A stretch of 64,000 nucleotides of DNA, taken from the IMG/VR virus record IMGVR_UViG_2861074659_000002; one strand, written 5' to 3'. The notes under the pieces were generated by a model. The model was not told the origin of the DNA, ran no database searches, and saw only the letters and a program-made list of their open reading frames with translations. Shown piece after piece: positions 34,101 to 34,587 of this stretch (position 1 is the stretch's first letter; each line of letters opens with the position of its first letter). The DNA comes from a virus (taxonomy: Duplodnaviria; Heunggongvirae; Uroviricota; Caudoviricetes). The position numbers were made by a program, and so were the translations under genes.

Positions 34101-34587
34101 GGACGCTCAGTAATGTGACGATAGCTGAAAACTGTACGATAAACGGTACGCTGAGGGCGGAAAAAATCGTCGGGGACATTGTAAAGGTGGCGAGCGCGGC
34201 TTTTCCGCGCCAGCGTGAAAGCGTGTGGACTGGCCGTCAGGTACCCGTACTGTCACCGTGACCGATGACCATCCTTTTGATCGCCAGATAGTGGTGCTTC
34301 CGCTGACGTTTCGCGGAAGTAAGCGTACTGTCAGCGGCAGGACAACGTATTCGATGTGTTATCTGAAAGTACTGATGAACGGTGCGGTGATTTATGATGG
34401 CGCGGCGAACGAGGCGTTACAGGTGTTCTCCCGTATTGTTGACATGCCAGCGGGTCGGGGAAACGTGATCCTGACGTTCACGCTTACGTCCACACGGCAT
34501 TCGGCAGATATTCCGCCGTATACGTTTGCCAGCGATGTGCAGGTTATGGTGATTAAGAAACAGGCGCTGGGCATCAGCGTGGTCTGA
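31190..34587 (+). pseudogene. J: Central tail fibre / host specificity protein J, frameshifted near 34220 so the last ~110 residues (LamB-binding end) are in a different frame
   Basis: 1023-aa ORF ends 34261; C-terminal J sequence ...LTFTLTSTRHSADIPPYTFASDVQVMVIKKQALGISVV is encoded by overlapping ORF 34225..34587. Confidence 0.8.

Follow-up and report, generated by a model that had tools for sequence, protein, structure and literature searches.

The frameshift that divides the tail fibre gene J in the window (the whole stretch of viral DNA analysed, positions 1-64000) is most probably, at roughly 85% by our estimate, an error of the record that arose in base calling, consensus building or assembly rather than a property of the phage, with a technical cause that we infer from sequence comparisons. 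We favor this reading because an independently assembled contig of the same lineage (L131) carries an intact J and differs from the window only by three single-base gaps, and because the window is rich in single-base indels. The break in the frame is itself a fact of the sequence and not a chance pattern. The list of open reading frames contained 31190..34261 on the plus strand (1023 aa) and an overlapping plus-strand frame at 34225..34587 (120 aa), and both the list and the translation agreed with the original prediction, in which the J frame stopped at 34261 after 1023 codons. The last ~110 residues of J had been assigned to the overlapping frame; the frame and its coordinates were as described, and the number of residues is 120 (1013-1132). 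This orphan frame is open from 34219, has GTG at 34225 as its first start-type codon, stops at 34585-34587 and has a translation ending in KKQALGISVV. A tblastn search with lambda proteins gave the gene order I (30458-31126), J (31190-34584) and lom (34649-35266), such that the window gene occupies the same place between I and lom as lambda gpJ (NP_040600; tip attachment protein or central tail fibre) and specifies the same series of domains.

Alignment of the last 700 nt of J with lambda (NC_001416) revealed three differences, namely a C-to-T change at 34188, one base absent after 34222 and a G-to-T change at 34417. The absent base corresponds to lambda 18538, which is J nt 3034 and the first base of codon 1012, and the same absence was seen in the comparison with the DE3 prophage. 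When lambda J was used as a tblastn query, residues 1-1011 were recovered in one frame and residues 1013-1132 in another, both identical to lambda gpJ except for A1000V and V1077L; at residue 1012, lambda has Ser and the window J has Gly once a single G is restored. There was thus no sign of decay in J, whose two halves depart from lambda J only at the break and at the two lineage alleles. A decaying pseudogene in a defective prophage was accordingly considered and rejected, as both halves of J equal those of an intact relative and all of the differences from lambda occur in intact J genes.

L131 is a short-read Logan contig (SRR7474257_101) assembled from a sample other than that of the window. 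Over 16,469 aligned bp it matched window positions 21192-37657 with 0 mismatches and 3 gaps, each of the gaps being a single-base deletion in the window, in J, K and C/Nu3, respectively, and all three genes are intact in L131. At the J site, L131 reads GAAAGCGGTGTGG and the window GAAAGCGTGTGG; the contig has AGC GGT GTG, with GG at J nt 3034-3035 and hence G at nt 3034, and encodes an intact J of 1132 codons with S1012G. The contig has an additional A at each of the other two sites, reading GATACTC against GATCTC in the window at C/Nu3 and GGGGGACGATTC against GGGGGCGATTC at K. Both J substitutions of the window, as well as a DE3-type base change at the first BamHI site, were common to L131. 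On the basis of this alignment, J, K and C are intact in the same lineage when it is sequenced independently. Reads restoring a 1132-codon J, which had been proposed as the check on the frameshift, are therefore available for the lineage in an independent read set, and not for the window's own sample.

To place this allele among public sequences, the full-length J was rebuilt from the two window frames and the 8 allele combinations at residues 1000, 1012 and 1077 were looked up by exact match. Wild-type J was present on >1000 public contigs, V1000/G1012/L1077 (P0002, the product carried by L131) on 7 and V1000/S1012/L1077 on 1. In public short-read assemblies, 7 of the 8 combinations of residues 1000 (A/V), 1012 (S/G) and 1077 (V/L) were found, most of them on 1-2 contigs; the scarce combinations may represent chimeric assembly in samples with two J alleles. 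The exact-product look-up found the 1023-aa truncated J and the 120-aa orphan product on 0 public contigs, and the deletion-bearing 34-mer had no exact match in viral, genome or metagenome collections. Searches of collections of phages, plasmids and complete E. coli genomes gave no second occurrence of the frameshift, and a scan of IMG/VR for sequences that share the flanks of J nt 3034 but vary naturally at that base gave none. All other lambda J genes examined were single open reading frames.

BLAST comparisons of the window with lambda and with itself showed that it contains no host DNA and is made up of two lambda imm21 nin5 phages that differ from each other and are arrayed head to tail, with a repeat length of ~43.3 kb, a cos site in each copy and attP near 43400-43430 (Table 1). 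A tandem double lysogen would be expected to look like this; alternatively, a repeat may have been mis-assembled. In one phage int is interrupted at its BamHI site, and in the other int is intact. The first ~300 bases of the window are the 5' end of TEM bla, beginning exactly at the ATG; no complete E. coli genome or PLSDB plasmid contained the bla'/int junction, and the two bla'/int' junction open reading frames had no exact-product match in public collections. The two copies differ by 59 substitutions, of which 58 lie in exo-bet-gam-kil-ea10. In this interval (copy 2, 46922-49709; copy 1, 3580-6367) the 58 substitutions are accompanied by 0 indels and all open reading frames are intact. The copy 2 substitutions differ from lambda as well as from copy 1, and the best match to the whole copy 2 stretch among phage records and complete E. 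coli genomes was ~98-99%; judged by its sequence, the stretch is a lambdoid recombination module.

Table 1. Coordinates of the main features of the window, with the single-base changes and J alleles discussed in the text.
Feature	Position	Strand	Remarks
5' fragment of TEM bla and GGAATTCGGATCC linker	1-312		joined at lambda 27971/27972, the BamHI site in int
int' to ral	313-6724		followed by imm21 immunity region, O-P, nin5 deletion, Q-S-R and cos at 15687/15688
Left arm, b region, attP, intact int, rest of early-left region to ral	15688-50066
Second imm21/O-P/Q-S-R segment, second cos, nu1 to start of C	after 50066		cos at 59026/59027
Homopolymer length changes in imm21 cI-cro-cII-O(ori), copy 1	7566..9053	.	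copy 1's own 11 changes at 8104-9053; 7566-8243 covers positions changed in copy 2
Homopolymer length changes in the same cI-cro-cII-O region, copy 2	50908..52392	.	14 changes: 10 common to copy 1, 4 private
Single-base deletion in C/Nu3	21195	+	GGATACTC to GGATCTC; frameshift at C codon 364
Single-base deletion in K	30112	+	GGGGGACGATTC to GGGGGCGATTC; frameshift
Truncated J frame	31190..34261	+	1011 native codons with A1000V, then 12 out-of-frame codons; TGA at 34259-34261
Missing-base site in J	34223..34224	+	GT in the window; codon 1012 is GGT in the closest relative and AGT in lambda (J nt 3034-3036)
Orphan frame, J residues 1013-1132 with V1077L	34225..34587	+	receptor-binding Ig-like domain
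C2999T (A1000V)	34188	+	lineage allele; also in ST18 lambda-pir prophage and Logan contig
G3229T (V1077L)	34417	+	lineage allele; also in Logan contig

The J deletion was one of many single-base length differences in the record. Over window positions 313-36915, the window departs from the DE3 prophage of BL21(DE3) at 2 substituted bases, which both lie in J, and by 14 single-base indels, of which 13 are deletions; against DE3 and L131 together, the first copy thus has 0 private substitutions and 14 indels in 36.6 kb. Spontaneous mutation in E. coli, as known from mutation-accumulation work, produces roughly ten substitutions per small indel. The copy 1 indels were unevenly distributed, 11 of the 14 falling within 950 bp of cro-cII-O (binomial probability ~1e-15), and all 11 are changes in the length of runs of 2-5 identical bases. 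In the imm21-O region, the changes private to a copy numbered 1 in copy 1 (a deletion) and 4 in copy 2, and the only substitution that separates the copies there is G/A at 7948/51287. At every changed position of this region, DE3, lambda imm21 and lambda h434 imm21 agreed with one another. As a consequence of at least 8 single-base changes that differ between the copies, O was unreadable by tblastn in both, and the imm21 repressor gene of copy 2 contains three deletions. The record is therefore unreliable at the single-base level, given that O is scrambled differently in two otherwise identical copies. Real decay would not scramble O with at least 8 frameshifts while leaving the other bases untouched, and with different indels in each copy.

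The deletions in J (34223), K (30112) and C/Nu3 (21195) are isolated, and each breaks an essential morphogenetic gene. Homopolymer context applies to J (GG to G relative to L131) and to the whole imm21-O cluster, whereas C/Nu3 and K each lose a lone A; the C/Nu3 deletion falls on the base that is altered in DE3 at lambda's first BamHI site (GGATAC). We considered whether all three isolated deletions were contractions of homopolymers in variant alleles (wild-type CC at the BamHI site, G at lambda 14426 and G at J 3034), an idea that holds only for J, as L131 has A at the C/Nu3 and K sites. At least 120 lambdoid contigs in IMG/VR, with the flanks unchanged, have G for A at lambda 14426 (window 30112), so that six G stand in a row. 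An origin of the imm21-O deletions in mixed-in reads from related prophages was likewise rejected, since the DE3 base is also the one present at those positions, with few exceptions, in mEp235, 2B8, ev087, PA28 and lambda. Compared with NC_001416, the window also has one G fewer at lambda 138 (window 15825) and one G more at 14266/14267 (window 29952); both differences are common to DE3 and the ST18 prophage, where the extra G leads to annotation of K as 247 aa, and they seem to be ones that generally set laboratory lambda apart from the reference sequence of 1982.

On the error reading, J in the DNA itself would be uninterrupted, with 1132 codons and the alleles A1000V, S1012G and V1077L. Codon 1012 would be GGT in the lineage allele, and dropping one G of the GG would give AGC-GT-GTG, such that the lost base would be a G of the pair created by A3034G and not the wild-type A of lambda. 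A polished record would likewise read GATACTC at 21195 and GGGGGACG at 30112. One simple error model fails to cover all of the changes, inasmuch as C/Nu3 and K lose a lone A outside homopolymers, and the error reading gives no account of the concentration of changes in cI-cro-cII-O.

These same features bear on the possibility that the J deletion is a real mutation private to the strain, in which the resident prophage of a laboratory lysogen, free of selection, dropped a G from J and an A from each of C/Nu3 and K, and from which induced particles would lack the LamB-binding domain and probably suffer failure of head and tail assembly as well. The break is, after all, present in the sequence; the tail genes of a prophage are under no selection; the three left-arm deletions are isolated and of a different kind from the homopolymer cluster; and L131 comes from another sample. 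We nevertheless regard a real mutation as unlikely, since it would have to coexist with the lack of any private substitution beside the 14 indels of the first copy, and since three frameshifts in three essential genes within 16.5 kb of otherwise unchanged DNA would be a very unlikely event. It is further disfavored by the differently scrambled O genes of the same record and by the absence of the truncated product from every other public assembly. A sub-case of technical error, in which the tandem prophages carried mixed J alleles (AGT and GGT) and reads that could not be assigned to either produced the gap, we consider quite unlikely. It draws on the nature of the window as a tandem array of two non-identical phages with nearly identical left arms and on the low-count mixed combinations at 1000/1012/1077 in public short-read assemblies, which are as expected for a two-allele sample; on the other hand, the adjacent variants at 2999 and 3229 were both resolved unambiguously, L131 has a plain A at each of the other two deletion sites (C/Nu3 and K), and only the first J copy is contained in the window. 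The data are explained without mixed alleles, and this addition is not needed.

Lambda uses programmed frameshifting in its G-T genes, and a J that functions in two frames was also weighed, either through a programmed -1 frameshift or through separate translation from the GTG at 34225 followed by non-covalent joining. The orphan frame is intact, and the Ig_GpJ_C domain that it encodes looks complete from profile position 17 onward. No X XXY YYZ heptamer was found in the J frame over 34160-34261, which includes the sole stretch in which a rescue could occur (34219-34258), however, and no Shine-Dalgarno-like motif precedes the GTG; moreover, the domain would be without profile positions 1-16, the arrangement occurred in no other sequence searched, and the closest relative has a plain single open reading frame. 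A functional split is thus very improbable, and more improbable still is the specific case of a real base loss with the J 1-1011 body and J 1013-1132 (from GTG 34225) made as separate polypeptides that still assemble. Were that case true, the central fibre of a siphophage would have separated spontaneously into its body and a receptor-binding protein that can detach.

To define what the break removes, the two window products were searched against Pfam. The truncated product contained FNIII-A_GpJ, Phage-tail_3, Ig_J, Ig_J_second and Phage_Tail_Tip, all above cut-offs, and Ig_GpJ_C was absent from it in this search. The orphan frame matched Ig_GpJ_C (PF12421; 'C-terminal receptor binding domain') with E = 1e-69 over profile positions 17-135 of 135. 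Ig_GpJ_C therefore lies in a frame other than that of the fibre body in the window, whereas in L131 and the 7 P0002-bearing contigs the two share one frame of 1132 codons. Structures of gpJ are available (8IYK, 8XCJ/8XCK), with PDB chains matching at E = 1e-158, and 8XCJ/8XCK span gpJ residues 713-1132. The C-terminal Ig-like domain of gpJ binds LamB, with four loops inserted into LamB (PMC11101478), and nonsense variants in the C-terminal region of J were null in a deep mutational scan (bioRxiv 10.1101/2020.06.25.171868). The claim that the phage would make a J lacking its LamB-binding end was borne out insofar as the break does cut off Ig_GpJ_C in the Pfam analysis, but the lesion is probably not real, given the intact J in L131. 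If the break were real, the non-infective phenotype predicted from it would be reasonable, and the result would be one laboratory prophage unable to adsorb to LamB, an ordinary loss of function in a well-studied gene.

The J alleles of the lineage were compared with those described for host-range shifts. According to Meyer et al. (2012), as summarized in PMC5046904, use of OmpF requires four classes of J mutation, consisting of one in 2969-2999, A3034G, G3319A and one at 3320 or 3321; C2999T is listed there as a class A mutation for OmpF use (PMC5046904). PMC6646904 describes residue 1012 as critical and places 1077 among the sites changed in the OmpF experiments. The window shares C2999T with the OmpF-using alleles, and A3034G is present in L131 and would be present in the window if the missing G were restored, whereas the changes at codon 1107 (G3319A with 3320 or 3321) are absent, the orphan frame differing from lambda only at 1077. 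The window J is thus not an OmpF-type allele, because codon 1107 is wild type. The OmpF-evolved lambda is, in addition, a different strain, the backbone of the window being that of a vector lineage (imm21, nin5 and the altered first BamHI site). An intact J with A1000V also occurs in the ST18 lambda-pir prophage (NZ_CP060709, 943883-984384; L003), which has nine nu1/A substitutions relative to the window and carries, in place of the b region, exo-ea22 sequence in inverted orientation, trpL-trpE-trpD' sequence and a truncated pir.

The vector affiliation was apparent from several features. Vectors of the D69/DE3 type share imm21, nin5 and foreign DNA at the int BamHI site (lambda 27972) with the window, and GGATAC at the first BamHI site with its lineage. 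Apart from the two J substitutions, the DE3 prophage differs from window positions 313-36915 only by single-base indels; the DE3 insert, however, ends in T7 gene 1 while that of the window ends in a 5' TEM bla fragment, and DE3 is without the b region (lambda 21.2-26.1 kb) that the window has. Lambda RS45 has the published genotype 'imm21 ind+ bla'-lacZsc' (PMC2681174), with which the bla' fragment of the window is consistent, and the identity of the window with lambda RS45 is suggested by that genotype alone.

Under the preferred reading of an erroneous record, the window would contain about 28 single-base errors in 64 kb, which break J, K, C/Nu3, O and the copy 2 imm21 repressor gene. Gene calls from this record are not to be read as pseudogenes, and the value of the finding in this respect is that of a quality warning. 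For work on lambda host range, the result points to a vector-type lineage carrying J A1000V, S1012G and V1077L, two of which fall in the OmpF mutation classes; judged from the sequence, this combination may be a classical extended-host-range (h) allele.
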